Positions 1-34,921 are shown, counted from the first letter of the stretch. The stretch is 35,350 nucleotides of DNA from Psammoneis japonica (GCA_008632985.1 QPGO01000110.1:248001-283350), one strand, 5' to 3'. Notes: a model not told the origin generated them from the letters alone. Program-made: numbers and translations.

Positions 1-40
1 TGCATTGGGGCCTCTGACATGGCAGACTCCATGTGCTGAC

Positions 41-448
41 AATGTGTTCCAGCTCTCTAGCCAGGTGGGACCTTGCACTGCTGAACTGTGACATCAACAG
101 TTTTTTGGATCATGTCGCACGTTGCACACGCACATTTTTATGTGTGATGTTCTGCCAAATTGTTTCATGCTCCCTGTTTTGCAAAGCCAAAGGCTTTCTG
201 TTTTCAACATTTTTGAGAGAACAAAAATGCACTGGGTGCATTCTTTAATGTCTGTGAAACACACCCGGGCAAACTGTCAATGATGTGCTCCAAGTGTGAA
301 GGAGGAGATGCGTTCGTAACACTGCCTCTTTTTCTGTTGGCAGTCATCATTTGCATTTTCATTGCTTGACAAATTTGCTGCGGAGCTCGCACGTAGAGCT
401 CCATGGACCAAATGTCACACGGAGTCCCGCCTGAAGCTGGAACCTGTT
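41..448 (+). mobile_element. Degenerate ~400 bp MITE (family A, GACGCGTTCCAG-type termini)
   Basis: Ends AATGTGTTCCAG...CTGGAACCTGTT, flanked by a TGAC duplication (37-40, 449-452). Internal blocks (CATTCTTTAATGTCTG, TGCTGCGGAGCTCGCAC, ATGTCACACGGA) match the copies at 14563, 26479 and 29547. Confidence 0.75.
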
Positions 449-452
449 TGAC

Positions 453-2800
453 AAAGGCGGCCGGCTTGTCTGGTGCATTCTTGCCCACAGACACAACCTG
501 TTTTGCACTGCACGGCCGAATTGCCGTGACACCTCCTGAGCCAGAATTTTGTCACCATGACAAAACCACGGCTGCTGGTGACATGCTCTTTTGTTGTGGT
601 GACTGCTCAACAAGACGTTTGCTTTCCCTGACACCACTTGCACACTTGACAACAGAAACCAAGAGGTTTGCATCAAGCAAGTCACATTCCTTGTTGTGCA
701 CTTTCCACGGGCTCAGGAAGCATCAGTGCTGATGCTGTTTTTTTCTCTTCAGCTCCCATCATGGCACAACCCAACACATCTCACTTGAAGATGGTCATCT
801 CCATTGCCATCAACTGGAGCCTGCCACCACTGGCATGTCTGCCAGCTTTGGTGCTCCTCTTCCTGTGGGAGTGACAACAGACAAATCATCCACGCCCTCT
901 CCCAACCGCAAGCAAGATCCTCAGAGGAACCATCACAATGGTGTCTGACTTTGCCCTTGCATCTGCCATGTGAAAAAGAAGAATGCAAACAGAGTGTGAA
1001 GGACTTCATTGATGCTGCTGATCAAAAGAGATGTGTTGTCATCATTGCCTGTCTTGTGCCAACAACAGGAGGCCACGTGGAAGTGGCAATGTCAAGAGCA
1101 ACAACATGAGGGAGGTGTCCTGCATCCTGCTGTCACCTGTTTTGGAATTCTTGTTCACCACCTGAATCTTCCGGCATTCATTGATGGAAAAACATTGATT
1201 TGGGACAGACACCATGCAAGTCTGTGCTGCTCTTGATCGCTTGCTGTGCAGCGAGAAAACTGATTCAAGCGGTGGCCTTTTGATGACATGGTCAGCTCCA
1301 ACTGGTTTTGCATTTGAGCACTTGGGTCTCTTTTTGGACAATGCCCTGAGAATCGACTGTGGAAGGCAGTTGACCCAAACAGCATTTTGTTTGCCAATGA
1401 GCCACACCAGTGTTGCATGACATTGGCAGTTGTGCTGTTGTAAGATTGCACACTGAAGCTGCTCCAGTCAGCTGCAAACACTCTGTCAATGACAACGGCG
1501 GGGACCCAAGACAACCGACATCATGTTCCAGCTCTGTGACAGAGCAGCCCCAATCAAACACTGCTGAAATCAACTCTTGATTCTTGTTGCCAAACTCTTC
1601 CAGATGAGAAGCCCTGTCATGTGACCCCCAACAAAGCAAAGGACAACCACAATCTCAATTTGGATCATGACAAATGTCACCGCAACAATTTCCAAGCTTC
1701 ATCTCATGCTGCTGCATTGTCAACCAGGCATTCAAACAATGTGGAATGGGAGTTTTTTGCCACCTCCATCAGTTGCGACAGATTCAACAATGCACGCTGA
1801 AACTTCAAATGGGGGCTGAGGCAACACAAACCCCGAGACAATGGTTTGAAGACTCTGCCTCCTTTTTGCAACTTTGTCTCTTGCTGCAAGTTTTCTGACT
1901 TTCTCACGAGCTTCCTTCTCTGCTTCACCAGCTTCCTCGACTGCTGCAAAATTTTCCTTGACTTTCTCATGAACTTCCTTTTCTGCTTCCAGCATTTCTT
2001 GAGAGCTGCAACATGCGCTCTCATTTTCAAGCATCAGCGGGAGACTTCTCGTCTTGTTGGGGATGTTGCTGGAAGGAGGTGACTCCTCATCAACATGTTT
2101 GCATTGCCTTGAGACTGCCTTTGACACATTTTGCTCATGTCCAGAGTGACTTCTGTGGCAGAAAGTGAGTGAAACAGTGCAGGAGTGTGTTGTGACAAAT
2201 CAGCAAAAACAAAAGAAAGAGCGCAAGACTCCAGGAATGGTTGAAGCATCTGGTTGCCAGCATTGATGTTCCACCAGATTCCATCCTGTGGACGATGAAA
2301 ACAACAACACCCTTGACACATTGGCGTCCATGCATGTGACGTTGTTTCAGCAACAAAGTGCGACAGTTGATGGTGGCACATGTCCGGTCACACAGGTGGC
2401 TCAGAGTTTGTGAAAAAAAGGAAGAGGAAAAGGAGGAGGGGAGAGAAAGGGTGCAGGTTCAGAGTGTGCGCACGATGGCCAGACTGATGGTGATGACTGA
2501 AAATTTTCAAATTTTTTGTGCGATGACTCGTTTGCATTTTTGGAATGTTGTTGCAGCTGCATTGATGTCAACAGTGACCAACATCAACAGCAGAAGCTCT
2601 CATGTCTCCAACAAGGTGTCAACTGTGCCAACTGATCCTCGAGTTGGAGAGAATGTGAAACAGTGTTTTTCTTGCTTTTGCCGCACTTTGCCATGTAAAA
2701 ATCAGCAGAGTGCAAACAATGCACACCTTCTTTGCCGTGAAACTGAGGTTGCATTTTGAAGCACAACAAGCTCTGCATTTTTGTCCTTTCAATTTGTCTG
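453..2800. repeat. TpA-depleted degenerate block, probably TE-derived, with coding remnants on the minus strand
   Basis: About 7 TpA in the first 2.8 kb (count by eye). Many overlapping Cys/His-rich, Tyr-free ORFs and no recognisable intact domain. Confidence 0.5.
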
Positions 2801-7397: not shown

Positions 7398-7574
7398 GGC
7401 CGCTTCTCTTTTTGTGTGCGATGTGCGATGCGATAGATGCGTGCGATGCGAAAGGCGCGAGCTCGTGCGTTTTCGCGAGCTCCGAAACACACAGACGACC
7501 GAAGTAGGTACGTGTTCGGTAACTTCGAGCAAAACAAACAGACACAAAGACAACTCGCACAGCACCACTCTCAT

Positions 7575-7850
7575 TGACAGGATTTGAACAGGATTTAGGT
7601 GCGCGCGAAGCATCGCGCGCTGTTTAGTTTACCGTGCACAGTTTTGTGTGCTTTAGTTCCGCGCGTTCACGCGCGATGTAGTTTGCTTTCGAGCCACAAG
7701 GCTCACAAGAATAATAACAGTAGCCCGATTATACCGACTCACACGTCTTTCGGCTCCTGTAACGGTCTCTGAGCGGAGACTCATCTGCTATTTAGACAGC
7801 AGTAAGGAGTTATTGTTTGAATTCTTGCCATTTGCCTTCATTTTCTGTCA
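7575..7850 (+). repeat. 5' LTR (276 bp)
   Basis: TGACAG...CTGTCA; direct repeat of 13911-14186 with 10 substitutions. Confidence 0.97.
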
Positions 7851-7861
7851 GATTAACAGTC
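7851..7861 (+). promoter_or_regulatory. Putative primer-binding site complementary to a tRNA-Asn(GTT) anticodon arm
   Basis: GATTAACAGTC directly follows the LTR. Its reverse complement GACTGTTAATC has the form of tRNA positions 30-40 with a GTT anticodon. Confidence 0.5.
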
Positions 7862-8793
7862 TTGCTCATTGTCAACCCATTGAGCAACCGCCATCGTCGT
7901 CGTTGATTTACCAACGACGGTATTTTTAATTCTACGTGGACCTCCGTATATATTCTACATACATCGGCAAGTCTACGCGCATTCAATACCAGGGCATCGG
8001 CAGGAAGTTAACGTCACCGTCAAGTCTCCTTACCGCTGGATATCTGGATTGATTATACTACCTTTGATCGCTGAAGACATACATTCAACGGTCATATCCA
8101 AGTCTATCCTTGATCCTCATCCCTTGATATACCTATTCATCGGTTAACGGTCAAGAACCCTACATATTCAAGGATCTTCGTCGCTGAAGACATATATATA
8201 TATACACATCTTCACGGCCAAGAACCTGTACCCACTCTTTGGACTGCGGTTTTGCTGCCACTCTACAAGCACACCGAGTCCATTGTACCTGATCTACCCC
8301 GGACTGCTGGTGCTCTGCAGTTCCACTAGGTCCACGAGGACGACTGTGAGAGCAAGCAGCCGTGATTGCAGCCTGCGTTGGGGCGAGGGTGCTTTCCCGC
8401 GTTTGTTCGTTCGTCCACAGTGCCTGACGCCTGCGTCAACTGGCCAGCCTGATCGGGAAATCCAACCGACATAAAATGAGAACGGTTCGGGGGTCTTGTC
8501 CACCTCTGGTCAGCTCACCTGCAGGGGTTTACAACCCGCTGCTCCGCTCGCAAGCAACCCAAAGCGCCGCTGGCTGCGGGTTCGGACGTGCCGGCACAAC
8601 TCTACGGACCGGATGGGAAGTTTAGCACTCAACAACGAACGGGATGACAAAGCCCGGCGACTTCTGATTTTAAGACAGTTCAAGATTTCAAGTCAAGTCC
8701 ATTTCAAGTCAAGTCCATTCTCACCCAAGTTTCGAGTCTGCCTTCGCTTCCCAACCAGAATTGATTGTCCTGACACCATTTTTTTTGTCTGCC

Positions 8794-10350
8794 ATGGTTC
8801 TCACTCGTCAGCAACAAACCGATGGTTTCGAGCACGTGGTTGGAACCGTGCTTGCCCAAGGTGCTGGGAGTCCTCTTCGTTTGGCTTTGGCCCAAGACGG
8901 CACGGACTCATGTCAGGAACTGTTCACGTTCATGCCGTCCCAAATCGACTCGCTTGAGTGCGACAACGGCACCAATGCAATCCCTTTGCCCCATGGTTAT
9001 AAGAACATGTCAGCAGCACCAGTCAGTCTGTACATTGTTAAAGCACACAAAGGTCTTGACGTTGCCAACGACTCCTCTTTGTTCATGCATGACGAGTTCC
9101 TTGCCTGCCGCCTCAGCCCCGACTGCATGTCTTCTGTGTCCATCGGCAGCTCACCCCTTGCACCTCCACATGTCACCAACCCGACCAAGGCACGCGACCC
9201 GGTGCGGGACTTCAAGCGAGGCATCAAGCGTGATCCCACCGCTTTCACGGCTCTCAAATCCGACAAGCAGTGGCACACTTGGCACACCTCACTTGTGGCA
9301 CAAGCCCGTGCCCAAGACGTCGAGTGCATTCTAGACTCGTCGTACAAACCGACCAGCCCCGAAGACAAACTGCTCTTTGCTGAACAGCAAAAGCACATGT
9401 TCGCCGTCTTCGAACGCATCCTTCTCACCGACAAGGGCAAGGCTCTCATTCGTGAAAATGTGGGGTCTTCTGACGCACAGACCGTCTGCCGCTCCTTGTC
9501 TGAGCACGCGCTTGCCTCCACCCGCGCATCCATCGAGTCCTCCACCCTGCTCACGCACCTCACCACCGCACGTCTTGGTGATGGCACTTGGAAAGGTCCG
9601 ACCCACGGGTTCATCCTTCATTGGCAAGATCAGTTGCGCAAGTGCGAGGCACTCATCCCGGCCAGTGACCACTTCTCTGAAGGACAGAAGCGCGTCATGC
9701 TCGAGAATGCCGTGCACCCTGTCGAGGAACACCGTGCTGTCAAGAACCAAGCTGATCAGCATCGTACGCAGAGTGGCAAGAGCCTCACATACGATCAACA
9801 CTGTGGCTTGCTCCTCTCCGCGGCAGCTCAGTGCGACAGCACGTTTCAACCCAAGACGACACCTCGAGCTCCCCGACGCGCCATGTGCGCACACGACGTC
9901 CACTCCGAGGAACCATCCGACGATGTGTTCTGCGACATTGACAGCGACGTTGACGTCCTTCAAGCCAATGCTGCCTGCACCCGTGGTCCCAGCCTCACCG
10001 GTGTCCAATGGAGACGTCTCCCTCCCGACCACCAATGGCTCTGGGATTCGTTGCCCGATTCCTCCAAGGCGATCATCCTTGAGCATTCCCGTCCACCTCC
10101 CCGCAACCCGCGAGCCAGCAACTGCCATGAGTCTGTTACGGCCAACCTTCACGACCAACACCTTGGGAGTGACGGTGATGTCAACTTGTCCAACACGACT
10201 CCTGCTGACTCTGGTGACTCCGCCCCACATGTGGACGCCACTTCGGATGGTCCCATCCTGGCGCACCTCACCAAGCGCAAGCCACTGCCACCCGGTGATC
10301 CGCAACGTCTGTTGTCTCCTGACCAAGCCCCCAATGCGACCTTGCACTGA
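8794..10350 (+). pseudogene. gag: Copia gag (mutated; truncated before the protease)
   Basis: CoDi-type gag motifs FKRGIKRDP..F..LK.DKQW..W, ARAQDVE.ILD, LF.EQQK.MFAVF, ILHWQDQLR, MLENAV. Tyr almost entirely replaced by Cys or His. Confidence 0.85.
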
Positions 10351-13300
10351 CGCCGAATGGGACACCCTGCCCCATGTCATCCTCACCGGTGATGACACAT
10401 GGGACCCTTCCGTCCTCGATCACTCTGTCACTGACGACGACCAGTGGCACGACGTGATCTCTGACCTGCAGGACGATCCCACTGCCAACCTGTTTGACGA
10501 ATGCGGCAACTGCCGTCATCGTGTCGTTGTCAATGAGACCATCTTGTCCGCTTCCTTGTCTGCCGATCACGCGTCCGCCCTCGATGATCACCTCATTCCG
10601 AACGACGACGTGTTCTGCGAGTGTCATCTGCATGCGATTGGCCCCCAGGGCGATGACGTTCCACCTCCGGAGCGCACTGCACAGCCCAAGGACCCCCCCT
10701 TCGAGTCTCTTCGGCCTCACTTTGGCTTCCTGCCTGCCGACACGGTCCGTCGTACTTTTGACTGCACCACGCAGTGCGCCCGCATGCCCGCCGGCACACA
10801 CCTTCGCAAGGCCTGCAAATCACCCAACCCCGCCCTTAATGTGCACCGCCGCAACGAGCCTGTCGCCACTGACACCGTTTGTGCCGACACCCCGGCCGTC
10901 GACTCTGGTTGCACCAGCGCCCAACTGTTTGTTGGCACCGAGTCTACCGTCACTGACGTCTGCGGCACTGAGACGGACAAAGAGTTTGTCAACACACTCG
11001 AGGATCAGATCCGTGAACGTGGTGCCCCATCCAAACTCATTGGCGACCGTGCTCAAGTTGAGATCAGCAACAAAGTGCTCGGGATCCTGCGCGCCCTCTT
11101 CATCTCTAGCTGGCAAAGTGAGCCTCACCAGCAACACCAAAACTTTGCCGAACGTCGACACCAGACCGTGAAGCGCATGGCGAACACTGTCATGGATCGT
11201 TTTGGTTCGCCCGCCCATGCATGGCTGCTGGCGCTCATGTGCGTGTGCTTCATGCTCAACCATGCAGCGTCCCCACGTCTCCACTGGCGCACGCCCCTCG
11301 AGACTCTCACTGGCTCCACCCCGGACATCAGCCCGTTGCTTCGCTTTCATTGGTGGGAACCCGTGTGCTTCCACCTCGATGACTCCGATTGGCCGTCCGA
11401 ATCCCGTGAGTTGCGTGGACGCTTCGTTGGCATTGCTGAACACGTCGGCCACCAGATGACCTTCAAGATTCTATCTGACGAGACTCAGAAGATCCTCTGC
11501 CGGTCCAACGTCCGCTCCGCTGCCCCCGATCCTGCCGTTCGAAACCTGCGTCTTGATCCTCCTGATGGGGAGCCACCTGAACCCATCATCAAATCTCGCC
11601 ATGACGACAACCCCGTCGACTCTCCTGATGGGGAGATCAGGACACCCAAGATGCCAGTTTTCGATCCGCAAGACATCATTGGACGTACCTTCCTCATGCA
11701 GCCACAAGAGGATGGACAACGCCACAGAGCTCGCATCGTCAAGGCCGTCGAAGACCACGAATGGAAAGTGAACGACAATCCCGAGCTCACTGAGTTCGTC
11801 TGCTCTGTCAACAATGACGAATACGAGGAAGTCCTTGCCTGCAATGACATCATGAATCACATTGAGCAAGAAGACGAAGACACCACTGTTTGGAAATTTC
11901 GACGCATCGTGTCGCACGAAGGACCTCTGAAGCCTCATGACCCAACCTGGAAAGGCTCAAGCTACAACATCATGCTTGAATGGGAAAGTGGGGAGATCAC
12001 GTCCGAGCCTCTTGCCATCATCGCCAAGGACGACCCCGTCACCTGTGCCATCCATGCACGAGAGAACGGACTCCTCGACACGGATGGCTGGAAGCGGTTC
12101 CGCACCATCGCGAGGCGCCAAAAGAAGCCATTTCGCATGGCCAGCCAAGCCAAGCTTCGCTCCTTCCGCACTGCACCTCGCTACAAGCATGGACACAAAG
12201 TTCCCCGGAACTACAAACACGCCATGTCACTGGACGAACGCAACGGCAACCGCAAGTGGGGAGACGCAACTAATCTCGAGATGGACCAACTCGACGAATA
12301 CGAAGTCTTCCATGACTGCGGGCCCTTCAAGTCTTCCACTCCTCCTGCGGGACACAAGAAGATCCGAGTGCACCTGGTGTGCGACGTGAAACACGACGGT
12401 CGCCACAAGGCACGACTCGTAGCCGATGGGCACCTCACAGACGCACCTGTCGACAGTGTCTGCTCCGGAGTGGTCTCCCTCCGTGGCCTTCGGCTGATGA
12501 TTTTCCTGGCCGAACTCAACGAGTTGGAGACATGGGCCACCGACATTGGCAATGCCTGCCTTGAAGCCACCACCAAGGAGAAGCTTTGCATTGCAGCTGG
12601 ACCCGAGTTTGGCAAACTCGAAGGACACATCCTTGTCATCCACAAGGCACTGCATGGACTGCGCAGCTCCGGTCTCCGCTGGCACGAGCGCTTCGCCGAC
12701 TGCCTGCGAGCTGAAGGCTTCTTCCCCTGCCGCGCCGAACCCGACATTTGGATGCGCAGGAATGGCGACCACTGTGAATGCATTGCCGTTTATGTGGATG
12801 ACCTCGCCATTGCCATGAAGGACCCTCAATCTTTCGTCGACACTCTCACGGAAAAGCACAAGTTCAAGCTCAAGGGTGCGGGACCCATTGAGTTCCATCT
12901 GGGTTGCGACTTTTCCCGGGAACCCGACGGAACCTTGTGCCTGTCTCCGCGCAAGTACATCGAGCGCATGGTCGACAGCTGTGCCCGACTGTGTGGGGAG
13001 AAACCTGCCACCAACGCCCTGTCACCTCTAGAGAAGGGTGACCACCCCGAACTGGACACTTCCGAACTGCTGGGACCCGATGGCATTCACAAGTTCCAGT
13101 CTCTTGTTGGTTCACTCCAATGGGCAGTGTCCCTTGGTCGAATTGACATTGCCACGGCCGTCATGTCACTCTCTAGCTTCCGAGCTGCGCCCCGTCAAGG
13201 CCACTTGGATCGTGCCAAACGCGTCTGTGGGCACCTCTCCAAGATGCGACACGGTGCTCTCCGCGTTCGTGCGGAAGAGCCCGACCATTCGGATCTCCCT

Positions 13301-13963
13301 GCTCCGGCCTGTGAATGGATGCATTCCGTGCATGGCGAAGCAGAAGAGATGATCCCGAAGGACGCTCCACCGCCCCTTGGCAAGTTCGTCACTGCCACCC
13401 ACTACGTCGATGCAAACTTGTGCCATTGCATGCTCACCGGACGCTCTGTCATGGGAATGCTCCACTTCCTCAACAAATTCCCGGCTGATTGGTTCTCTAA
13501 GAAACAAGCCACCGTGGAGACTGCGACCTGCGGGTCTGAATTTGTTGCCGCAAGGACTTGTGTTGAGCAGATTGTCGACCTGCGCATCACCCTGAGCTGC
13601 CTTGGCGTCCCGATCCGTAACGTTAGTTACATGTTCGGTGACAACAAGTCGGTTGTAGACAGTGCCACCATCCCGCACTCCAAGTTACACAAGCGACACA
13701 CCGCACCATCGTTGCACCGTGTGCGTGAGGCAATTGCCTCTGGTTGCCTTGAGCTCCACTTCATTGAAGGCTCCCGCAACCCTGCTGACATTCTCAGCAA
13801 GCATTGGGGTTGCTCCCAAATCTTGGACCTTCTCCGCCCCCTCATGTTCTGGAACTTCATTCCATCCGAAGTCGAATCTGTTTCTGTGGCTCCTCAAGCA
13901 AACTGGGGAGTGACAGGATTTGAACAGGATTTGGGTGCGCGCGAAGCATCGCGCGCTGTTTAG
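10334..13963 (+). pseudogene. pol: Copia pol: integrase, reverse transcriptase and RNase H (open frame, heavily Tyr to Cys/His mutated)
   Basis: Integrase VATDTV, SEPHQQHQNFAERR; RT HKARLVADG, DIGNACLEA, KALHGLRSSG, YVDDL; RNase H YVDAN, ETATCGSEF, GDNKSV, NPADILSK. Confidence 0.93.
13905..13910 (+). promoter_or_regulatory. Polypurine tract
   Basis: GGGGAG immediately 5' of the 3' LTR. Confidence 0.7.
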
Positions 13964-14186
13964 TTTACCGTGCACAGTTTTGTGTGCTTTAGTTCCGCGC
14001 GTTCACGCGCGATGTAGTTTGCTTTCGAGCCACAAGGCTCACAAGAACAATGACAGTGGCCCGATTGTGCCGACTCACACGTCTTTCGGCTCCTGTGACG
14101 GTCTCTGAGCGGAGACTCATCTGCTGTTTAGACAGCAGCAAGGAGTTGTTGTTTGAATTCTTGCCATTTGCCTTCATTTTCTGTCA
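13911..14186 (+). repeat. 3' LTR (276 bp)
   Basis: Direct repeat of 7575-7850, followed by TSD CTCAT. Confidence 0.97.
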
Positions 14187-14227
14187 CTCATCAACAACTG
14201 TCGTTAGGGTTTTCTATCCTTGGACAA

Positions 14228-15070
14228 CCCCACTTGTGCACAGATGGTCTCCAGAGACCATCTGTGCACTGTCGCCTGCACAGATGGTCTCCAGAGACCA
14301 TCTGTGCAGCTGCATTAAATTCTGCGTGTTTGCACCAGGAAAATGCACCTCCAACCCATCCGGCACGCTCGAGCAATGTTCCATGCACGAGAAAGAAATC
14401 GTTGGTGCAGGCGAACAACATCACTCTACGATGCGACTGGTGCAAAATCTACGTAAATGCACAGATGCGCTCTGGAGCATGTCTGTGCAAATTCGAGCTC
14501 GCAATTCTTGTACATAAAATGTTGCTCACGCCTGCCGGATGGGTTGGAGATGCATTTTCCTGGACGCGTTCCAGCCCCAGGTGGGAGCTCACAGCACTGA
14601 CGTGTGACAACAATGATTTTTGTCATCCGTCGCATGTTTCGTGCGCAGATTTCTGCGTGTGACATTTAAAAAAAATTGTCCAGACTCACTGTTTTGCGAA
14701 GCCCCAGACGTTTTACATGACAAATTTACAGAAACAACAATGCGCCAGTTGCATTCTTCAATGTCTGAAGAATGTAACTGGCTGAGTAAAAAATGATGCA
14801 CTTCAATCATGTGCGAGTTTGTGCGTTCGCAAAATTGCCTCATTTTCTGTTGGCGATCATTGACATTTTAAGTGCCGTGTGATTTTGCTGCGGAGCTCGC
14901 ACTCAGAAGTCTGCGGGCCCAATGTCACACGGATTCCCACCTGCGTCTGGAACGCGTCCCTGGTGCAAACACGTGGAATTTAACGCAGCTGCACAGATGG
15001 TCTCTGGAGACCATCTGTGCAGGCGACAGTGCACAGATGGTCTCTGGAGACCATCTGTGCATGAGTGGGG
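14228..15070. mobile_element. Foldback non-autonomous DNA element with ~140 bp TIRs and CCCC...GGGG ends (piggyBac-like), interrupted by a family A MITE
   Basis: Left arm 14228-~14367 is the reverse complement of ~14533-14562 plus 14963-15070. Each arm has two TGCACAGATGGTCTCnnGAGACCATCTGTGCA palindromes. Flanks ACAA and ATGA can both derive from ATAA. Confidence 0.8.
14563..14958 (+). mobile_element. Family A MITE, 396 bp
   Basis: TIR GACGCGTTCCAG..CAGGTGGGA / TCCCACCTG..CTGGAACGCGTC; 4 bp TSD CCTG. The empty site is visible in the opposite arm of the host element. Confidence 0.9.
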
Positions 15071-15186
15071 ATGAGGAGCAGGGATGAGGAAAGACAAGGA
15101 AACCAGATGAGGAAAAATTAATTGTGGCAATTTGCCGCGCAGTTGCGACTGGCATGGCCCTTTCATGTGGCGGTTGACTTGTCCAG

Positions 15187-15576
15187 GACGGGTTCCAGTC
15201 CTGGGTGGGACTCCGTGTGACATTGGGCCCGCAGAATTCTACGTGCGAGCTCCGCAGTACGAGAATTTAATTGATGGATACACTCATCTTCAACATCAAA
15301 TAAACTGCCAAGTTTGTGGTGCAATTTTGCCTCTTGCCACTCGACGTTTTTGCAAATGCGCCTGCCCTGCGCGATTCTTAAGACATTGTAGAATCGCGCT
15401 GTGACAAAAAATGTCAAAAGTTGTTGGATGGATCGCTCAATAAGTGTGCCGTAAAATGTCACAAAATGTCGAAAAAATCACGTAGAAATCTACGTGCGCG
15501 ACATACGACGTGATTCAAAAAACTGTCGATGTCACAGTTCAGTGGTGCGAGGTCCCACCTAGACCTGGAACGCGTC
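15187..15576 (-). mobile_element. Family A-related MITE, 390 bp, inverted, with a divergent interior
   Basis: Ends GACGGGTTCCAG...CTGGAACGCGTC, TSD CCAG (15183-15186, 15577-15580). The first ~70 bp are the reverse complement of the family A right end. Confidence 0.85.
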
Positions 15577-16219
15577 CCAGAGCCCATGGCTGCTGAAGCA
15601 CTTTAAACACTGCATTCAATGAGCAAGGTGGACGCTGTTGGGGACCACATTCTCGGCGCGATTGCCCCACCTCGTCGTGACCGCAGCGAAAATGCCATCG
15701 TCGGGAGACCAACAGAGAGCATGCCTTTCGTCGTTGACCACTCCTCCAAACGCTGACTTGTGACTTTTTGTTGAATGCGCATTGTCAATGTGGGGCTCCC
15801 TGAGCTTTCTCTGGACACCCGCATTGTCCATCGTCGACAACGGCTGTCACGACGAACGACGAGTTGATGATGCATGGTGCCATGGTGCTTGCGAGTGTGG
15901 TGTGTGGTGTTGTTGGCAAGTGGCGCGCGAAAAAGCAGCTCAATCGCGCCATCGGTGACGTCATAATCTACGTAGAATCTACGTAGGATCCTAGTGCAAA
16001 GATTTTTCCTTATCTTCTTCCTTTATCTTGTGCTACTGTAACCGCTTCCTTACGATAGAAAACCCTTACTATCGTGTATAAAAACAGCAACAGCAAACAT
16101 CACACTCTGCTTATTGATTATGGTCCGGTATGGTCGCGGTAGGGCTAGGGTTACATCATTCAATCATACACAGACCCCCCTTTCTGACTGTGCTGTAGCT
16201 TCTTTTTGAAAGAGTCACA

Positions 16220-17626
16220 ATGTTGCTGTCAGAACTTTCACCGCAAGTACAAGAGCTCAAGAGCAAGTTGGATGCTTTTGTGCAAGACGAATGCATACCG
16301 GCAGAAGTTGAATTCGATCGTCACGTGGACCAACGAGTTGGAGCGGATCGCTGGACAATTCAAGCCATTCCTCCGTGTGTAGAGCGTCTCAAGTCTAGAG
16401 CAAAACAGTTGGGATTATGGAACTTGTTTATTCCACCCAGTCTCATTTCGAAGATTCCTTCCGACATTGAGAAACCGTTGATGTCGCTAAGCTTTCGAGA
16501 GTACGGTATTTTATGCGAAACCATGGGACGTTCCTTTCTCGCACCCGAAGTATGCAATTGTAGTGCACCTGACACTGGAAATATGGAAGTTCTCCTTCAC
16601 TTTGGCACGAATCAACAGCAGGAATCATACCTCAAGCCGCTCTTGCAGGGAAAGATTCGATCCGCCTTTTTAATGACGGAACCAAACGTAGCGAGCAGTG
16701 ACGCTGCCAATCTACAAGAAACAAAGCTTGTCCGGGTGGAACACAAGAATGGAGAAATTGAGTACATTCTGAATGGAAGAAAATGGTGGAGTACCGGTGC
16801 TATGGATCCTAGGTGTAAGGTTGCACTCGTGGTGGCAAAGATGGACTACTCCCACCCGACTTGCACTGTCAAGCCATTGGAAAATCAGAGGCATTCAACT
16901 CAGACTGGTAAGAGAGAAACTTGGATAATGAATACATGTACTCGAATATTCATCAGCATATTTTTACTCATTCCCTGCTCCTCCCCTATTTCTTATTGCA
17001 AAGTCGTTCTTGTACCCATGAATCATCCGGGAATCAAAATGGTGCGCCCATTGACGGTTTTTGGTTACGACGATGCACCCCACGGACACGCTGAAGTGCA
17101 ACTGGAAAATATTACTCTCAAGCCGTCCGACTTGATTCATGGAGAAGGTAGTGGATTCCTTGTAGCGCAGGCTCGTTTGGGACCTGGTCGTATTCATCAT
17201 TGCATGCGGTCAATTGGCCTGGCTGCAAGATGCTACGAACTCATGCTGAGCCGGGCCATGGAACGAAGTACTTTTGGAAAACAGCTATGGCAGCACGGTT
17301 CCTGTCAAGAAGAAATTGCAAAATCCTTTTCCGACTTGGAAGCGGCGAGGCTACTGACTCTCGATTGTGCCGCCACAATGGATGCGGTGGGAGTCAAGGA
17401 GGCACGAAACAAAATTGCCAGCATCAAGGTATCGGTTCCGAGACTTGCCTTGAAAATTGTCGATCGAGCTGTACAGATTCATGGAGGAGCTGGAGTTTGT
17501 AGCGACTTTCCATTGGCTCGGGCCTTGGCAGGGTTGCGGTCGTTGCGGATTGCGGATGGACCAGATGCAGTACATTTGAGGACTGTGGCGCTATTGGAAA
17601 TGAAAAAGAAACGTAGTCGATTGTAA
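16220..17626 (+). CDS. Acyl-CoA dehydrogenase (ACAD10/ACAD11-like catalytic domain); intron 16908-17003
   Basis: Motifs NCSAPDTGNMEVL, SAFLMTEPNVASSDA, NGRKWWSTGA, GYDDAPHGHAE, AQARLGPGRIHHCMR, LRIADGPDAVH. 96 nt GTAAG...AAG intron. Confidence 0.95.
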   Translation: MLLSELSPQVQELKSKLDAFVQDECIPAEVEFDRHVDQRVGADRWTIQAIPPCVERLKSRAKQLGLWNLFIPPSLISKIPSDIEKPLMSLSFREYGILCETMGRSFLAPEVCNCSAPDTGNMEVLLHFGTNQQQESYLKPLLQGKIRSAFLMTEPNVASSDAANLQETKLVRVEHKNGEIEYILNGRKWWSTGAMDPRCKVALVVAKMDYSHPTCTVKPLENQRHSTQTGKRETWIMNTCTRIFISIFLLIPCSSPISYCKVVLVPMNHPGIKMVRPLTVFGYDDAPHGHAEVQLENITLKPSDLIHGEGSGFLVAQARLGPGRIHHCMRSIGLAARCYELMLSRAMERSTFGKQLWQHGSCQEEIAKSFSDLEAARLLTLDCAATMDAVGVKEARNKIASIKVSVPRLALKIVDRAVQIHGGAGVCSDFPLARALAGLRSLRIADGPDAVHLRTVALLEMKKKRSRL

Positions 17627-25615: not shown

Positions 25616-26334
25616 GATGCCAAGTGTCCATGCTCTCTGTAGCATAGCATCACAAAAAACGAACAAGGCACTCATTGCGTAGCCTACACAGGCAAACGAT
25701 AAACGATAGAATCCACCGACTCGCACGGAATGTGTGCGCGACTCCGTCAAGAGCAACACCTCAAAACCGAGTGGATTCCAATGTATCGTGTAAAGCTTGG
25801 CATGCTGTTGTGTAACGGACATTGGCAACGGTCGGGGTTCAGGTAACCGATGTGACGTGGTGTCGGAGGGAATGTTCGATGAACGTTCCTCCAATGGCGC
25901 TCACTTGTTGCAAGCAGTTGTGACAGGCCTCAGAGTGTCTTTGGATCGTTGTGTCGTCATCATGCGCCAGCACTGCGAGCAGCTGAGCGCCCTTGCTTTG
26001 TCAGAGCCAAGTTTCCGCACTCCACGGTTTGGTGATTGAAGCAACAACCAGCGTGGTTGCAGCGGCCATTGTCTTGTTGGCATGGTTTTGATGACGAATG
26101 CTGATCAACCTGGGGCTGTTCATGCCAATGACAAGTGATGCCTTTGCATCAGTGTGTGCGCAAAGCAGTGGGAGATGCGGCCACATCTCCGTGCTCTCAT
26201 GGCTTGCATGCATCGTCGGCACAATTTGTGAATGTCAGTGTTTTGACGTGCTTCTTCCAACACAACTGCACCCTTTTTGATGCTCTCATGACCTTGGATT
26301 TTGCCATGGCGGCAAACCCTCAAACCCGATGGAG

Positions 26335-26478
26335 GACGTGCTGACATGTGACACAAACAATTTTTGTCATCCGTCACATGTTTCGCACATGCATTTCTGC
26401 GTGTGATGTTCAAAAAAAAATTGTCCAGACTTGCTGTTTTGCAAAGCCCCAGATGTTTCACATGACAAATTTACAGGA
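26335..26478 (+). mobile_element. Family A MITE fragment
   Basis: Matches the left third of the family A interior (TGTGACACAAACAATTTTTGTCATCCGTC...CATGACAAATTTACAG). Confidence 0.75.
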
Positions 26479-27265
26479 GACGCGTTCCAGCCCCATGGCG
26501 AGTCAGAATGAAAGCTGTGTTCCGCCCGAAGCTTCCGCGTGCAACAGGGGGGGTGTCAAAATTGCCCATTTGTCACAGCACGTAGAATCTGTGCAGGTTC
26601 TTGCATTGACCTTGCTGTGGGCACAGTCAGCAAACAACCTGACAATCACAGCATGCAGGGCCTGCGCAGGTCCTGGCATTGAACCTCTTGTCAGCGCATG
26701 ACCTGCGTGGTCACGGCTGCAGCTTTTGGCAGTCGATTCTTCCCGGGACTGACTGGCAACGAACTGACTGTCAGCACAGAATTTGCACCAGGTGCTGTGG
26801 AAGCTGTGATTGGCAAGTGGGCTGTGATCCAGAAAGGAGTGTGGAACCTTGAAGGGGGGGGAGGGGGTGGAGGCGGAACACACAATCAATTCGGACTCGC
26901 ATGGGTGGGAGCTCGCAGCACTGATGTGTGACACAAACAATTTTTGTCAGATCCGTCGCATGTTTCGGGTGTGCATTTCTGTGTGTGGCACTCCAAAAAA
27001 ATGGTCCAGACTCACTGTTTTGCAAAGCCCCAGACGTTTCACACAACAAATTTGTGGAAAAAATGATGCACCAGCTGCATTCTTCAATGTCTGAAGAATG
27101 CAACTGGCTGAGCAAAAAATGATGTGCTTCAATCATGGACGAGTTTGTGCGTTCGCAAAATTGCCTTATTTTCTGTTGGCGATCATTGACATTTTCATTG
27201 CCTTGCAATTTTGCTGCGGAGCTTGCACGCAGAATTCTGCACGCCACCTGCATCTGGAGCGCATC
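26479..27265 (+). mobile_element. Family A MITE split within its left TIR by a second insertion
   Basis: GACGCGTTCCAGCCC at 26479 resumes as GGTGGGAGCTC at 26904 and ends CCACCTGCATCTGGAGCGCATC at 27265. Confidence 0.85.
26496..26901. mobile_element. ~405 bp MITE nested in the family A TIR
   Basis: Imperfect TIRs GCGAGTCAGAAT..TGTGTTCCGCC / GGCGGAACACA..ATTCGGACTCGC. Flanks CA and TG sit at a site that is TA in the TIR copy at ~15560. Confidence 0.7.
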
Positions 27266-27289
27266 AGAGACAGCCCTCACCTGGATTGG

Positions 27290-27720
27290 TTCCCACCTGC
27301 AGGTGCAGCGCACCACAATTGTGACCAACACTGCAGTGTTTGATGATGTTGTCAACGTGAAGGAGTTGGATGTTGACACTCTTGTGCAGTCCTGTTCAAG
27401 GAGGGCTGCAGCTGAAAGGCATTTCCACTCTGGATTGGCCCACACCCATCACCCAAAGTCCGTTGTCCATTGGGTGCAGGACTTTCAGCATGTTGGTGGC
27501 ATGGATCGAACAAGTTTTCTGGATGCGCTGTCTGCCGCGTTGACCAGGGCCAAGATTCACAAACTTCCAGATTGAGGACCAACCCAAGTCCACTGCTTGT
27601 GGGGCATCCCCCAGACTCTTGGAAAGCAAAAACAAGTGGGCAAAATGGAGCACCGCCTTCTAGAACATGCTTGGCGTGACATTGGGCATGGATGGCATTC
27701 TGTTGATCCACATTGCATCA
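27290..27720 (+). pseudogene. Fragment resembling a gag N-terminus from a second copia family
   Basis: RHFHSGLAHTHHPKSVVHWVQDF..SFLDALSAALTRAKI..ASPRLLESKNKWAKW resembles diatom copia gag N-termini (recognised from memory, not searched). Confidence 0.5.
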
Positions 27721-28254
27721 GAGGCCGCAGCACAGTGTCATTCACTTTCTTTTGGAAATTTTGGGACATTCAACCGCACAAAAGCACGTCATCATTGTTC
27801 AACCTCAATTTCAATTTCAACAGTCAAGTTGAATTTGTTGTTTCCTTTTCATGTGTGCAATTGTTGCCTTTTTGTTTTGATTTGAATTTGCCAAAGACTT
27901 TCAACCTGCATTTCATGTTTTTAAAACAAGTTTTGTTTTGATGAATTTGTTGCATGTTCATGGAAACGTCAGCTTTGACAGTGCTTTTCAACAGCTCCAC
28001 TGCAGTCTTGCCATCACCACAGACAATGGCATTTCTTCCATGCCCAAGTTGGCCACATGAGTGTCTGGCTCATTGTTTTCACCTGTGCCCACCAGCCCTC
28101 CATTCAATGGCTCCCTGCCTGCATTTTGGTGCATTTTCTGCATGCGCAATGCTCTGCCCATTTCATGACAGCACACCCTCTCCCCAAAATGCATTTGACG
28201 AGAGGGTGCACTGTTGTGATTCCTGTGCATTCCACGTGAATCAGCAACTGACTG

Positions 28255-31200
28255 TTGGCCATGGCGGCTGGTGACTTTACCCCATCTGACAACAAGGTCG
28301 ACCCTGACCCTTCTTTCCAAATTTCTGAGGACTGTGATTTTGATGAAATGGAACATTTCACCAACGGCTTTGGATTCGAAGTGTTCCAACCCAAACTCAA
28401 AAGCACAGCTGCAATGCATGCCTCCAAAAAGCAGTTTTTGGAGATGACAAATTGGACCCCCTCTCCAGAATTCCTTGCTCTTCCCTTCCTTTGTCACAAG
28501 CCGAAGCCACGTTGTGTTCCACATGTTGCCGAAGTCATCCATGCCAACGACATTGAAAGGAAAACTCTTGGCTGTCCCCACATTTGGTCCTGCACAATGA
28601 CTCGATGTTGGCCCACTGAGAAATCTCGCTGAGTGAAAGGCGAACATGTCCTGCGATGTAAAAATCTCAAGGAGGCTCTCCATTTCTCCAAAACATCCAG
28701 AGAGACAGAAAAAGAACAGCAGAGCCGCGCGCTTCTCCACCGTGACATCCAGGCGATGGTGGAATTTGTTTGTGCGATCATTGCTGGAGACGACCCAAAT
28801 GATCCCGCATCTGGTTGGCCTTGTTTCCGATTTTTGCGTTGCAAAAGTCTCCAAAGTTTGATCAACGATCGAGCCCAAGACCTCCACAGTGCACATTTTG
28901 TCACTGACATTGTCACGCGTCATGTTCAGTGCAAACCCAAGGACATGGACCATTGGCTCCTCAAGATTTGCCGTCATGTCAACACCCAAAAGGAATGGCG
29001 CCTCTTTGTCAACAGCTTTCTGGTTGCATGCGATGCCAATGATCCTGGTTCTCAGGCGGACAAGATCAAGGGGTTCCTTGGTGACCAAACCAGCAACATC
29101 AAAAACACATCTGTTGTCTCAAGGCCCCTCCTCACACCCCATGATTGCACACGCCCCACCAGAGCTTTCCTTGACCAAGGCCAAGCCTGCATCTTGCTTG
29201 AAGACCAGCACCTCCTTTGTTGTCTGGCAATGTGCCGTCATCTGGGGAGGCGCGCCGGACTCTCACTGCCAACCTTCCATCACTCTCAGAAATGATGGAA
29301 AACCGAAAACCTGCTCCTGCCTCCAAAGGTCCTTTGTCCAAACTGCGCTCCTCTCCTCCATCTGTTTTGGCAAATGTTCCTGTGGTTGCATCTCCTCCCA
29401 GCAACCCCAACGACATGTCGTGGATGGACAAGTCCACACTCCACGATCGCTTTGACCCGCCCAAGTGTCGGCCCACCACCACCGAGGAAGTTGCTTCTCA
29501 TTTGTCACACCTGCACATCATTGACAAAGCCATCGGCACTGATTGAGACGCATTCCAGCCCTGGGTGGGAGCTCTCAGCACTGGCGTGTGACACAAATGA
29601 TTTTTGTCATCTGTCGCATGTTTCGCACGTGCATTTCTGCATGTGACATTTAAAAAAAATGTCTGGACTCGCTGTTTTGCGAAGCCCCAGACGTTTTGTG
29701 TGACAAACCAATGGAAACAACAGCGCACCAGTTGCATTCTTCAATGTCTGAAGAATGCAACTGGCCAAGTAAAAAGTGATGCACTTCAATCATGGGCAAC
29801 TTTGTGCGTTTGCAAAATTGCCTCATTTTCTGTTGGCAATCATTGACATTTTAATTGCCACACAATTTCAGTGCGGAGCTCGCACGTGGAATTCTGCGGC
29901 CCCAATGTCACACGGATTCCCACCTGCATCTGGAATGCATCTCGAGTGCCTCATCATTCCGCCACCGACTTTTACCTGGCGGACACCTTGTGGGAAAACT
30001 GGCACACATTCTCAAACAAAACTCCTTTGTGTGATTCCGCCACTGCATCTTGTGTCCAAACCGAGTGCCCTCCTGACCTTGATCACTTCTCCGAGGAACT
30101 CTCTGTTGCCTGACAAGCCAACTCTCTGCACAAAGGGCACTTTGGGTGCCTTTGTGTGTGCATTCCCACCCTTCTTCTGTTTGTTCTGTTGAAGGGCAAG
30201 TCCAATTTGAGACGTGACGGACCGGCTGCAGCTTTGAATGGCAAAGGACGCAGGACAAAGTTCGGTTGTGCAGGGCAAGCGCACCACCCAAAGTTGCCGG
30301 GCTCTGCCAAACTTGCTGAACCCAAGGCTGCCTGTTGACTTCATGGTTTTGAGTCGATGACAACTTTGATGCAAACAAGTCATCCAAAATCAAGGCAATG
30401 GCAGCCGACATCCTCGACTCGATTCAGCTGTGCAAAAATGAGGTGAAGCTGTGGAAACTGAGCAATCCGCCACCATTTGACTGGCTGCCATGGTGCGAGG
30501 AGTGCTCGAATCAGTTGGGCAACAAAATGGACTGTCTTTTCTTTAAACGCAAGGACATCGCCATGCAGGGATTGTGCATTTCCCGGGGTCAAGTCTGTGA
30601 TGGTCACCATGACAAAAAAAAACTGCACCTGGTGTTGACACAGGAAGACAGCCGCAGGTTGCTTTTTTGTCATGGATGCCTTTGGTGACATCTGGTCCTT
30701 CAAGGTGGTTGCCAACAGCAGAGCCACCATTGGCGAACACTGTGATGACCAGTGCGACATGAAGCCTGTGCTTGCTCGCATGCACCACAATTGAGCTCAG
30801 CTTGATTTTGCACTTAAAGACTTGGACTTGCAGCACAATGGTCCCACCCACCCAGATGTGTTGCTTGCCAGCAGTGCGTTCAAGCATCTTTCCCTTGACA
30901 ACAACAGGCCATGGGACAATGTTCCAACTGGCGGAGGGGGGCAATCTTCGCACGTTGAGGTGTGCATGGACTGGCTCAAGTTCCCGACATTCCCAGTCAG
31001 GGACTTCCACGAATTGGGTCGTTTGACAAAATCTGTGTCGCCAGGTGGGATGGTGCACTCTGATGACAGGGGTGTGGCTTTGATTGAGTTTGAGAGCAGC
31101 AAACACGCGGTTGACCCTCACCTGCGCTGCGACTCCATGGACCTGTTTTGCATGTTGAATGATGACGACATCCAAGAAAAGTGGGAGGAGCTGTGGAAGA

Positions 31201-33607
31201 AGAGGCGCAACCACATGGTTTGGGTGCAAGACCATGTGAGGGATTGGAGCGGTGAAGCAATTGAGCACGTGCACGCCAGCACACACATGTTCTCAACTCA
31301 CAATGACCTGCCCTGGGTGAGCGGCGTTGTCAACCGTGGGACAAATGCTCGCCAGTGCAAGGAGCATTGGGGCTGCATCACGACTCACCAAGACAGGCAA
31401 GGAGGGTGCACTGGGTCAACAGCACTGGCCACAATGAAGGAGAGAAAGAGCTGATGGATGACTTTGCAGTGGGTGTGTGTGATGATGCAAAACTGGTCAT
31501 TGACAGGGGAGACGTTTCAAGATTGAGACAGAAGTCGAGCGTCAGCTTGCCGACTTGTGGAGTGGATGAGACAGGCACTTGCAGACCATTGGGAGAAACA
31601 TCAGCAAGGGGAGGCTCTTGCAGACCAGCGATGGACAAGAAGGACATTGTTTGCGATGCACTGAAACTGGCAAAGTGGCTCCAGCATGACATTGTGCGAG
31701 ACTGCCATGAAAGACTTTGGCTCTGTGAGGAAATGGAGTTCCTCCTGTTGTCTCCAAGGAGAGTCAATGAACGGACACTGGACATTGTCGCAAAGGAGGA
31801 TGGTGAGTGGGAGAACTTTCACACAAGGAGAGAGGAAATGCGCTGGGTGGAGAGACGTCATTGCGCTGAAGTTGACGAATTTGTGAGAGTGGTCGGAGTG
31901 GAGACGAGGGCTTTCACCAGCATGACTGGTTGTTCCGACGTCGGGCAATGCAGCAGGTTTGGAGTTACAAGGTCAGAGGGAGATGACAAACTGGACCAGA
32001 AAAAACGATTTGGCACCAAAAAGGATGGATGTGCTTGGGCCCCAACAGCAAACCGGAGCGTCGTTAAAGCAGGTGAGGGGTTTGTTCATTGCAGCAAAAG
32101 TGGAATGCTTGTGCACGCCATTTGCGCTGTGGAAGTGGATTTTGACATTGCAGCAAAAGAGAGGTTTGAACTGGAATTCGCAGGGATTCAAAATTTTCAA
32201 AAGACAACGAGGAGTGGCAAAACAAACAAGTTGCACACACATCAAAAGATTTGGTTGATTCTCCATTGTGTTGCATTTGAGAAAAGAGAACCGTTGGTGG
32301 AAAGCATGAGATTTTTTGAAAATTTCCCAACGGCAAAATCAGCCAGGGACACAAGGCATGGAGCCACCCACAATTGGCAACAGCAGCACAGGCAATGGCG
32401 AGGAAGAAGAAGAAAGAAAGTGCGGGGGTGGCTGGAGATCAACCAACCAGCCCAAGGCTGGCCGCGGCGTTGGCGCGGGTGGGAGCCACTGGGGATCACC
32501 AGTTTGCAAAGAGAGAGGCAGAAGAGGTGGCGCAGAAGGAACTTTTCCCAAAGGCAAAGTTCCTTGTCAAGGCGGACATGGCAAGCAGTGGCAAAGTGTC
32601 GCGGCTCATCAGGAAAAGACAGCCGGCGGCAATTGCAGCAAGCAAGACTGGGCAGGAGCATGGGAAGACTGGGCAAAGAAGTGTGCCGCACGCTCAATTG
32701 ACGCAAAAAGGAGTGCGGTCACTCAGGCGATCAAGAACAATGCAGCGACTGGTGAGTGTTTTGTGGTGCACGGCGTGTTGAGCGCAGCTGCACTCAACAC
32801 TGCTGCACCTTAATTTGCTGAAGTCGTGTTGACAGAGAATGAAGCCGAGGAGATGCGCAGTCAGAAGAAGCCAGCAGCAAGAGGCAGAGGAGGGAAGAAG
32901 AGCAAGAAGAGGAAGAAGAATGATCACACAGTGGATGAAGAGCCGTTCCTGGCAACTTGGGAGGAGGAGACAGCTGCAACGATTGTGGAGGACAAGCGCA
33001 AGAACAAGGAAGCACATGCTTGGTTCTGCGAAAACATCCTGAAATTCACAAAGAGCACCACGACATGGAGAAGGAAGGTGGAGTCGGGTGAGACGAAGGC
33101 AGCCGGTCTGGCTGCAGTGAGCGACGAGGCTCTGGGGCTGTTGACGCTGGAAAACTGCTGGAAGAGTTGGGAGCACAAGGCACGTCATGACAAGGCTGTT
33201 GGAGCAGAGGCTCGGATGAAAAGGATGAGGAAGAGTCAGAGCCAACGCCCAAGCACATGGACCCGTCAAGGCAACGCGACTCGTGGAAGGATGCAGGGAC
33301 GCTGCGATTCAACGAACTGCTCGCAGAAGCAAAGAAAGACAGGTTGAGTGAGGAGGGCATGCAGTTTGACACATGGCACAGCGAAGGCAAGAAAAGGAAG
33401 AGTGACAAAAGAGGCAAGGGATTGAAAAGAGAGAGACAGCCAGTGGAGAAGGAGGCAAGTGCACAGGCAACGACAGAGCTTTCAAGTGACAACAAGGAGA
33501 AGGAGGAAGAGGAAACGGACAAGAACAGAGGAGACAAGGAAAGCGAGGAGGAGGATGAAGACAGCGATGTGGGAAGCGAAACGAGCGCAGATGCAGGCAA
33601 TGAGTGA
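28255..33607 (+). pseudogene. Degenerate subtelomeric multi-ORF element, probably a large TE remnant
   Basis: Long co-oriented Tyr-free coding stretches at 28255-29540, 30398-32280 and 32350-33607. The last has VSDEALGLLTLENCWKSW...SWKDAGTLRFNELLAEAKKDR, an acidic tail and a probable GTGAGT intron at ~32752. Confidence 0.5.
29547..29941 (+). mobile_element. Family A MITE, 395 bp
   Basis: GACGCATTCCAG...CTGGAATGCATC. Flanks TTGA and TCGA (4 bp TSD with one CpG transition). Colinear with 14563-14958. Confidence 0.9.
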
Positions 33608-33903
33608 GCTGCGATGTGAAAAGGCAGCGGAGGCTTTTGTCAGTGTGAGAATGGAAAGCAGACAAGCAGCGCAGCAGGCTTCAATGCAAACAGTTGCAAG
33701 GTTCAACAAGGCATTTTGGGGATCATCGATGTGTGATCTGACCTTTCATTTGACAACCAGTGTTTGCAACAGAAGGTTCTTTAAACCCAAGAAATGCAGC
33801 GATCAGCGCTGTTTTGTCATTGAGCACAACGATTTGAACTTCGCTTTAAAAAGGCAAAAAGGGGCGGCACTCTGACAGCCAAGGGTGGGATCCCATGGGA
33901 CAA

Positions 33904-33930
33904 GGGTTGGGGTTGGGGTTGGGGTTGGGG
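33904..33930 (+). repeat. Variant proximal telomeric repeats (TTGGGG)x4
   Basis: GGG(TTGGGG)4 immediately before the gap. Confidence 0.85.
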
Positions 33931-34734: not shown

Positions 34735-34880
34735 GGGTTAGGGTTAGGGTTAGGGTTAGGGTTAGGGTTAGGGTTAGGGTTAGGGTTAGGGTTAGGGTTA
34801 GGGTTAGGGTTAGGTTAGGGTTAGGGTTAGGGTTAGGGTTAGGGTTAGGGTTAGGGTTAGGGTTAGGGTTAGGGTTAGGG

Positions 34881-34921
<41 letters not shown>

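Follow-up and report, generated by a model that had tools for sequence, protein, structure and literature searches.

The 35,350-nucleotide (nt) window analyzed here, a stretch of the Psammoneis japonica assembly (GCA_008632985.1, QPGO01000110.1:248001-283350), carries in subtelomeric DNA one insertion of a Ty1/copia long terminal repeat (LTR) retrotransposon. This insertion has most probably undergone a DNA-level hypermutation of TpA dinucleotides to TpG or CpA, which occurred after integration and was confined to a bounded tract; we put the probability of this reading at roughly 0.85. The region 8794-13910 is the internal coding part of the element, where 8794 is the first base of the gag ATG and 13910 the final base ahead of the 3' LTR.

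Tyrosine is scarce in both open reading frames (ORFs) of the element. It accounts for 9 of the 1186 residues of pol (0.76%) and 4 of the 529 residues of gag, and pol contains 3.29% Cys and 5.06% His. The means for the 120 relatives listed, which are 62-73% identical to the window over the reverse transcriptase (RT)-RNase H part (two longer records, 53-56%), are 3.96% Tyr (minimum 2.31%), 1.01% Cys, and 3.64% His. An alignment was built from gag and pol of the window and the 40 relatives that come first by identifier among 64 full-length ones, a column being regarded as conserved when at least 80% of the sequences agreed; a second tabulation was based on the 50% consensus. The window spans 699 columns conserved by the stricter rule, 97 of which are substituted. 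In the 34 columns where Tyr is conserved, it has Cys in 15, His in 9, Tyr in 7, Phe in 2, and Trp in 1, and at the 52 Tyr columns of the 50% consensus it has Cys in 22, His in 12, Tyr in 10, Phe in 6, and Leu and Trp in 1 each. As a control, every one of the 40 relatives was set against the remaining 39 in the same way: of 1448 Tyr cells, 1391 kept Tyr and 57 did not, the four residues most often found instead being Phe (36), His (9), Trp (7), and Asn (3), with Cys in at most 2. The frequency of Cys or His at Tyr columns therefore differs sharply between the window (24/34) and this control (9/1448; Fisher p = 2.8e-37). The control was drawn from a --keeplength alignment, and the window counts gave the same totals when repeated without that option. 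A reading previously made from the sequence alone had counted about nine Tyr in pol and quoted seven motifs in which Tyr was thought to have been lost. The count is exact, and all the motifs (DIGNACLEA, KALHGLRSSG, SVCSGVVSLRG, HLVCDVKHDG, ETATCGSEF, HCECIAVYVDD, and HWGCSQ) are present in the frame-2 translation of 10403-13963. The claim that copia elements have Tyr at the quoted positions holds for the family columns in general, but not at HLVCDV, where most relatives have Phe (consensus VHLVFDVKHDG) and the closest one, P0004, has Tyr. No obvious rule in the flanking sequence distinguished the 13 retained Tyr codons from the mutated ones, and the same was true of the LTR sites described below.

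Since 119 of the 120 relatives listed have two Cys or His at most at the conserved Tyr columns, Tyr, and hence TA, is the ancestral state. The family sequences, together with the LTR differences and the other copies described below, support the view that a single TpA-specific change turned TAY into TGY or CAY according to the strand, and that both strands were affected. A TA to TG or CA change in a TA-containing codon can account for 34 of the 97 conserved-column substitutions. The same change was found across codon boundaries, where T|A became T|G: Thr to Ala in four cases, Lys to Glu in two, and Ser to Gly and Ile to Val in one each. T precedes 8 of the 9 first-position replacements of the A-to-G type, as against 76 of 205 conserved codons beginning with G (p = 0.0028). 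An ApT control was set aside as confounded, because TAT contains both TA and AT. Changes in the opposite direction are missing (0 cases for C to Y, H to Y, M to I, T to I, P to L, or S to L), save for a single Ala to Val seen with the 50% consensus. Arg (CGY) occurs at no Tyr column, in keeping with a site that ceases to be a target after a change on either strand. The TG and CA outcomes are not clustered by strand (27 runs observed, 25.2 expected). C precedes all five first-position replacements of the G-to-A type; a second and minor process, apparently CpG decay, is visible here.

Comparison of the two LTRs dates the changes. Both LTRs of one insertion are identical at integration, and since the same five bases, CTCAT, stand on both sides of the element, the two LTRs belong to one insertion. 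They now differ at 10 of their 276 positions, and in every case the 5' LTR has TA where the 3' LTR has TG (8 sites) or CA (2 sites); five other TA are kept in both LTRs, and there is no difference of any other kind. Since the LTRs were identical at insertion and differ at TpA alone, the changes took place in chromosomal DNA after insertion. They affected one LTR only, at a rate far above background, as 10 of its 15 TA were changed and 0 other positions, a count that records a historical footprint only.

The changes are confined to a tract with abrupt edges. From 7575 to 8327, the element contains 52 TA (observed/expected ratio, o/e, 0.96; GC content 0.46), as against 43 TA in the 5.9 kb from 8328 to 14186 (o/e 0.16, GC 0.57). 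The edge, at about 8328, lies inside the leader, so that the 5' LTR and the start of the leader are unaffected; the unrelated dispersed and inverted repeats downstream of the element are included in the tract (14187-15960, TA o/e 0.27), which stops at about 15960, where unique genes start. Two other tracts of this kind are present in the window. The three have TA o/e values of 0.03-0.27 and TG/CA o/e values of 1.3-1.8, with edges that are sharp within about 150 nt, whereas the gene-bearing unique DNA between them has TA o/e values of 0.58-0.63. Since the tract ignores the boundaries of the element, the targeting was regional, directed at repeated or silenced chromatin, and not tied to the retrotransposition cycle. 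The exemption of the 5' LTR, although it duplicates the mutated 3' LTR, argues against homology sensing of the kind found in fungal repeat-induced point mutation (RIP) and for targeting by domain, whether chromatin or tract, rather than by duplication.

Other copies of the element were searched for in four sequencing runs, which come from a single sample and study and are possibly the source of the assembly; the platform is not on record. When their contigs were placed on 7500-16500, the summed word depth, which is not a copy number, was 57,000-200,000 over the element and its flanking repeats; it was high up to 15626 and fell to 54-345 in the unique flank beyond 15627. This contrast shows that the family is highly repeated. 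In run X1, the variant places comprised 252 transitions and 27 transversions. Forty of the 283 variant rows were read, and most of these were of the TpA type. In 12 isolated rows, TG or CA of the window corresponds to TA in the other copies; at position 10970, for example, the window has tGAG (Lys to Glu) and the other copies have A. In four rows the other copies have TG or CA where the window retains TA, and at four sites the copies show the alternative outcome (at 13707-13708, for instance, the window reads CCA, Pro, and the others CTG, Leu). Since alternative outcomes occur at the same sites, the copies must have been mutated independently at shared ancestral TA. Across 79 related elements from metagenomes (79 of 80 loci were used, one being dropped because its matched range was below 1500 nt or it had no plus-strand match), TA o/e is 0.74 +/- 0.16 (range 0.45-1.13), as against 0.15 here, and GC content ranges from 0.37 to 0.58, as against 0.58 here. 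As the TA o/e of these relatives is ordinary, the low value is not a family trait. Many of them (L003, L005, L014, L049, L054, L057, L068, and others) show CpG o/e values of 0.10-0.25 with an excess of TG/CA and ordinary TA; this CpG depletion is the usual decay of methylated cytosines and is distinct from the TpA process.

The sequence-only reading had taken TA to be ancestral and both strands to have been hit, and it is borne out on this point by the Tyr of the protein family, by all 10 LTR differences, and by the TA of the other copies. Its check that substitutions should be enriched at TpA likewise gave a positive answer, both at the first codon positions and in the LTRs. The substitution classes that it had expected to dominate were correctly named for Tyr to Cys or His. 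The others were rare: there is a single Ile to Met and a single Leu to Pro, and at the 50% threshold also one Leu to Ser and two Val to Ala, one of the latter with the expected GCA codon. The eight cross-codon changes, which are commoner, were not among the classes named. It had also described the element as inactivated by missense load while its frame stays open. The gag and pol ORFs are indeed long, but a stretch of about 160 codons containing the protease has been deleted, gag and pol are frameshifted, and the openness itself is a by-product. TA to TG or CA changes destroy TAA and TAG, can give TGA only from TAA, and create no new stops. Long ORFs occur in all six frames, and TGA is by far the commonest stop. 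The long open frames can thus be attributed to the near absence of TAA and TAG.

The specificity, direction, timing, and tract structure of the process are shown by these data: it acted on DNA after integration and converted about 70-80% of the TpA sites to TpG or CpA, i.e., by A:T to G:C transitions at a palindromic dinucleotide, within a sharply bounded tract (here from about 8328 to 15960). Tyr codons (TAY), which are the only sense codons beginning with TA, thereby became Cys (TGY) or His (CAY) codons, and codons beginning with A changed their first base when the preceding codon ended with T, giving the replacements Thr to Ala, Lys to Glu, Ser to Gly, and Ile to Val. Mobile or repeated DNA is in this way inactivated by missense changes while its stop codons vanish, and such a process might serve as a genome defence. 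By analogy with the mechanism proposed for the chlorarachniophyte Bigelowiella natans, the lesion may be the deamination of adenine to hypoxanthine by a deaminase acting on DNA.

Several points weigh against this reading. As many as 63 of the 97 substitutions are not of the TpA type; 6 of them fit CpG decay, and the remaining 57 or so look like ordinary divergence from relatives that are 57-67% identical over pol. The sense strand shows a weak excess of TG over CA outcomes (23 vs. 11, p = 0.058). The tract starts inside a repeated element and omits the 5' LTR, which is itself duplicated, and this is unexplained. As independent evidence that the pattern is no artefact of assembly or base calling, the four runs carry little weight. 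Finally, lesions of A and lesions of T predict the same outcomes, and the present data do not separate them.

This last point makes room for a process which is equally tract-wise and TpA-specific but differs in its chemistry, through either a modified thymine (of the 5-hydroxymethyluracil or base-J type) mispairing with G, or patch repair at WA sites by a polymerase resembling Pol eta. A thymine-modifying enzyme specific for double-stranded DNA would give the same pair of TG and CA at palindromic TpA. Pol eta prefers WA motifs, but a polymerase with this preference should also strike ApA, and AA is not depleted in the tract (o/e 1.09); ApA is involved in no LTR change (0 of 10), nor do any of the 9 first-position A-to-G replacements found at the strict threshold follow A, so a signature of this polymerase type is not supported. 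We regard another chemistry as unlikely, though of all the alternatives it keeps the most credit. An artefact, i.e., base-calling errors at modified TpA or a chimeric contig of a high-copy family, is very improbable. The high repeat level does invite chimeric assembly, there is an N gap in the window, and the runs are from a single sample. However, 65% of the sampled 31-mers of 7500-16500 are present in the contigs of run X1, a 3595-nt contig equals the unique flank without any difference, the same assembly shows normal TA in the 5' LTR and in unique DNA, the same target-site duplication is found at both LTR-flank junctions, and P0117, an independent relative from another record, has the same pattern of Tyr to Cys or His. 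Hardly more credible, and if anything less so, is an A-to-I editing of the retrotransposon RNA before reverse transcription by an ADAR- or ADAT-like enzyme preferring a 5' U. According to the preprint on B. natans, UA is the favoured editing context (bioRxiv 10.64898/2026.01.13.699255), and sense-strand A to G is the commoner outcome here; but reverse transcription yields identical LTRs, and these differ at 10 TpA. T to C is moreover frequent on the sense strand (9-12 Tyr to His and the 2 LTR sites), and the tract omits the 5' 750 nt of the element and reaches 1.8 kb into a flank which is not part of it. None of the signs of RNA editing, namely identical LTRs, changes on the sense strand alone, and restriction to the element, was thus found. 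A reversed direction, in which RIP-like C to T changes at CpA/TpG would have made the TA of the 5' part, or in which an original poor in TA or a codon or composition preference would account for the pattern, can practically be dismissed: the LTR differences alone give no polarity, but the conserved Tyr of 119 of the 120 relatives does, the 5' part has no excess of TA, the related elements have TA o/e values of 0.45-1.13, and the non-coding LTR and flank are affected too.

The closest counterpart of this process was described in B. natans, where the de novo mutations in mutation-accumulation lines were only TpA to TpG or CpA changes, at about 1000-fold above background (bioRxiv 10.64898/2026.01.13.699255, Mettrop et al.). 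These events were confined to two integrated viral regions of 25-186 kb, TpA-poor clusters and coding sequences were enriched genome-wide in Pfam families of reverse transcriptases and DDE enzymes, and the authors propose that an ADAT2-like adenine deaminase acts on DNA (bioRxiv 10.64898/2026.01.13.699255). The two cases share the exclusive targeting of TpA, with both TpG and CpA as outcomes (seen here in the LTR, Tyr, and first-position data), sharp multi-kb tracts in which TpA depletion is accompanied by CpA and TpG enrichment, and the foreign or mobile nature of the DNA affected. They differ in that the B. natans targets are single-copy giant-virus and virophage inserts, as opposed to a high-copy LTR retrotransposon and subtelomeric repeats; in that the depletion is far deeper here (o/e 0.03-0.16, vs. 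0.45 for the nucleocytoplasmic large DNA virus region of B. natans); and in that de novo events were recorded there, and only a historical footprint is available here. The hosts differ too: B. natans is a chlorarachniophyte, and the present one groups with diatoms by its acyl-CoA dehydrogenase gene (16199-17626), the best named homologues of which are exclusively from diatoms apart from one dinoflagellate transcriptome entry. These named homologues are 52-62% identical and belong to Phaeodactylum, Thalassiosira, Stephanodiscus, Chaetoceros, Seminavis, and others. A protein-atlas query with this enzyme added no helpful taxonomy. The host is thus most likely a diatom, and its diatom-like genome bears the same signature as B. 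natans. The words copia, LTR, retrotransposon, and tyrosine are absent from the main text of the preprint in its available form (bioRxiv 10.64898/2026.01.13.699255), and a full-text literature search returned that preprint alone for such mutation, with no report from a diatom or another stramenopile.

Fungal RIP resembles the present process in consisting of dinucleotide-specific transitions, on both strands, of repeated or mobile DNA after its integration, with a missense load and a skewed composition as results. In RIP, C becomes T at CpA, which generates TpA and stops, whereas here both are destroyed and GC is raised; RIP senses duplication, and here one of two identical LTRs was left untouched. 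RIP was rejected as a candidate, as TpA is depleted, GC content is up, TAA and TAG are nearly absent, and the polarity is from TA to TG or CA. The editing of retroelements by ADAR and APOBEC enzymes likewise gives deamination-like, context-specific, inactivating transitions. APOBEC, however, gives C to T or G to A, which is not the pattern observed, and ADAR acts on RNA and can neither make LTRs differ nor mutate flanking DNA.

A wider proposal, which we put forward tentatively and regard as possible without counting on it, is that diatoms have a dedicated tract-wise system working as a RIP in reverse: a TpA-specific A:T to G:C mutator of double-stranded chromosomal DNA, which would be aimed at silenced or repeated domains and not at element boundaries or duplication, and would erase transposable elements together with subtelomeric repeats and telomere-proximal TTAGGG repeats (turned into TTGGGG). 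It would be the same system as that of the rhizarian Bigelowiella and thus an old genome-defence pathway, overlooked until now, of the stramenopile-alveolate-rhizarian group. Mutational genome defence of the RIP type has so far been regarded as specific to fungi, and a mutator with the opposite chemistry, which destroys TpA, raises GC, and removes stops, has so far been reported in one 2026 chlorarachniophyte preprint only; the present data suggest that the process is phylogenetically wider than reported. The locus has clean internal controls, i.e., a pair of LTRs differing at TpA only, a protein family that polarises the changes, and copies with alternative outcomes, and the edge of a tract inside an element provides a testable handle on how tracts are delimited. 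In genomes of this kind, the ages of transposable elements deduced from LTR divergence would be badly wrong, and gene finders will call long spurious ORFs in such tracts; the TpA-poor islands rich in TG and CA offer a way of mapping what the system targets.

The structure of the element is that of a Ty1/copia retrotransposon (Table 1). It has two LTRs ending in TG...CA, with 5 bp of target site duplicated on either side, together with a copia-type RT (Pfam RVT_2, PF07727, E = 1.3e-24 at residues 648-859 of pol) and an integrase upstream of it. The gag ORF had no match in Pfam. From 10262-10334 onward, pol is 57-67% identical to three full-length relatives (tblastn), and it is collinear with the full-length relatives from their integrase region on. 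The missing stretch lies between gag and the integrase in the relatives and holds a protease-like DRGANGG region, and contigs of other copies diverge from the window precisely at 10334 and 10337. Instead of the intact gag-protease-pol frame of an autonomous copy, gag and pol lie in different frames. Since the protease region is deleted and gag and pol are frameshifted, this copy is internally deleted and would be non-autonomous regardless of its point mutations. The TG...CA LTRs, the 5-bp duplication, the order gag-(protease)-integrase-RT-RNase H, and RVT_2 are also those of diatom Ty1/copia elements (presumably the groups known as CoDi), from which this copy differs by the absence of the protease region and by the frameshift. 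Hundreds of relatives 62-73% identical to it are present in aquatic metagenomes.

Table 1. Features of the element and TpA-depleted tracts, in window coordinates
Feature	Position	Strand	Basis or remark
Target-site duplication CTCAT, 5' copy	7570..7574	+	Read directly; same 5 bases after the 3' LTR
5' LTR, 276 nt, TG...CA ends, 15 TA, not hypermutated	7575..7850	+	Direct repeat with 13911-14186, 96% identity
Leader, from 5' LTR to gag ATG; TA-rich to 8327, TA-poor after	7851..8793	+	TA positions
gag ORF, frame 1	8794..10350	+	tblastn with the N-termini of P0004, P0012, and P0016, 37-42% identity
Deletion junction, protease region lost, frame 1 to frame 2	10334..10338	+	P0004 residues 531-689 without counterpart (tblastn)
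pol ORF (P0001), integrase, reverse transcriptase, plus RNase H, frame 2, 1186 aa	10403..13963	+	Enters the 3' LTR
3' LTR, hypermutated, 10/15 TA changed (8 TG, 2 CA)	13911..14186	+	LTR comparison
Target-site duplication CTCAT, 3' copy	14187..14191	+	Read directly
Flanking dispersed and inverted repeats, TA-poor	14192..15960	.	Repeat families D1, D3-D6, and I1-I6; TA o/e 0.27
TpA-depleted, TpG/CpA-enriched tract	8328..15960	.	Spans the element's 3' 5.9 kb plus 1.8 kb of flanking repeats
Second TpA-depleted tract, 6 TA, TA o/e 0.03, CpG o/e 0.33	1..2695	.	Shares repeat families with 14577-14953
Third TpA-depleted tract, 18 TA, o/e 0.04, reaches telomere-proximal gap	25845..33930	.	TA counts

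At 13874-13963, the pol frame passes the end of the relatives by about 30 codons, into the 3' LTR; the original stop of pol may have been a TAA or TAG erased by the same TpA process. In the unaffected part of the leader, a (TA)6 microsatellite (8193-8204) is intact 125 nt ahead of the tract edge, and reads were reported as cut at 8187-8214. Outside the window, the pattern of Tyr loss was found in one of the 120 relatives listed, P0117 (735 aa, from another public record), in which 11 of 24 conserved Tyr columns have Cys (7) or His (4) and YVDD reads HVDD. Since P0117 is about 65% identical to every other member, it is an independently hypermutated element of another lineage.

The long ORFs of the tracts at 1-2695 and 25845-33930 contain no Pfam domain. 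CpG is also scarce in these two tracts (o/e 0.33 and 0.53, as against 0.91 for the copia tract), and they look older, having undergone CpG decay as well as the loss of TpA. One dispersed repeat family occurs in all three tracts (61-447, 14562-15577, 26339-27240, and 29547-29949), with inverted copies at about 14225-15577. Its copies are 68-86% identical, and CA vs. TG is their commonest adjacent double mismatch. When copies were compared with one another, adjacent CA/TG mismatches numbered 78 and those of the AC/GT mirror type, which served as the control, 15, numbers that carry no polarity, because TA and CpG are both possible ancestors and CpG is also depleted. At 33908-33930, just inside the N gap, the sequence GGGTTGGGGTTGGGGTTGGGG consists of TTGGGG units, and beyond the gap (34735-35350) the telomere has TTAGGG; as a TA to TG change turns TTAGGG into TTGGGG, the innermost telomere repeats may lie in a hypermutated tract.

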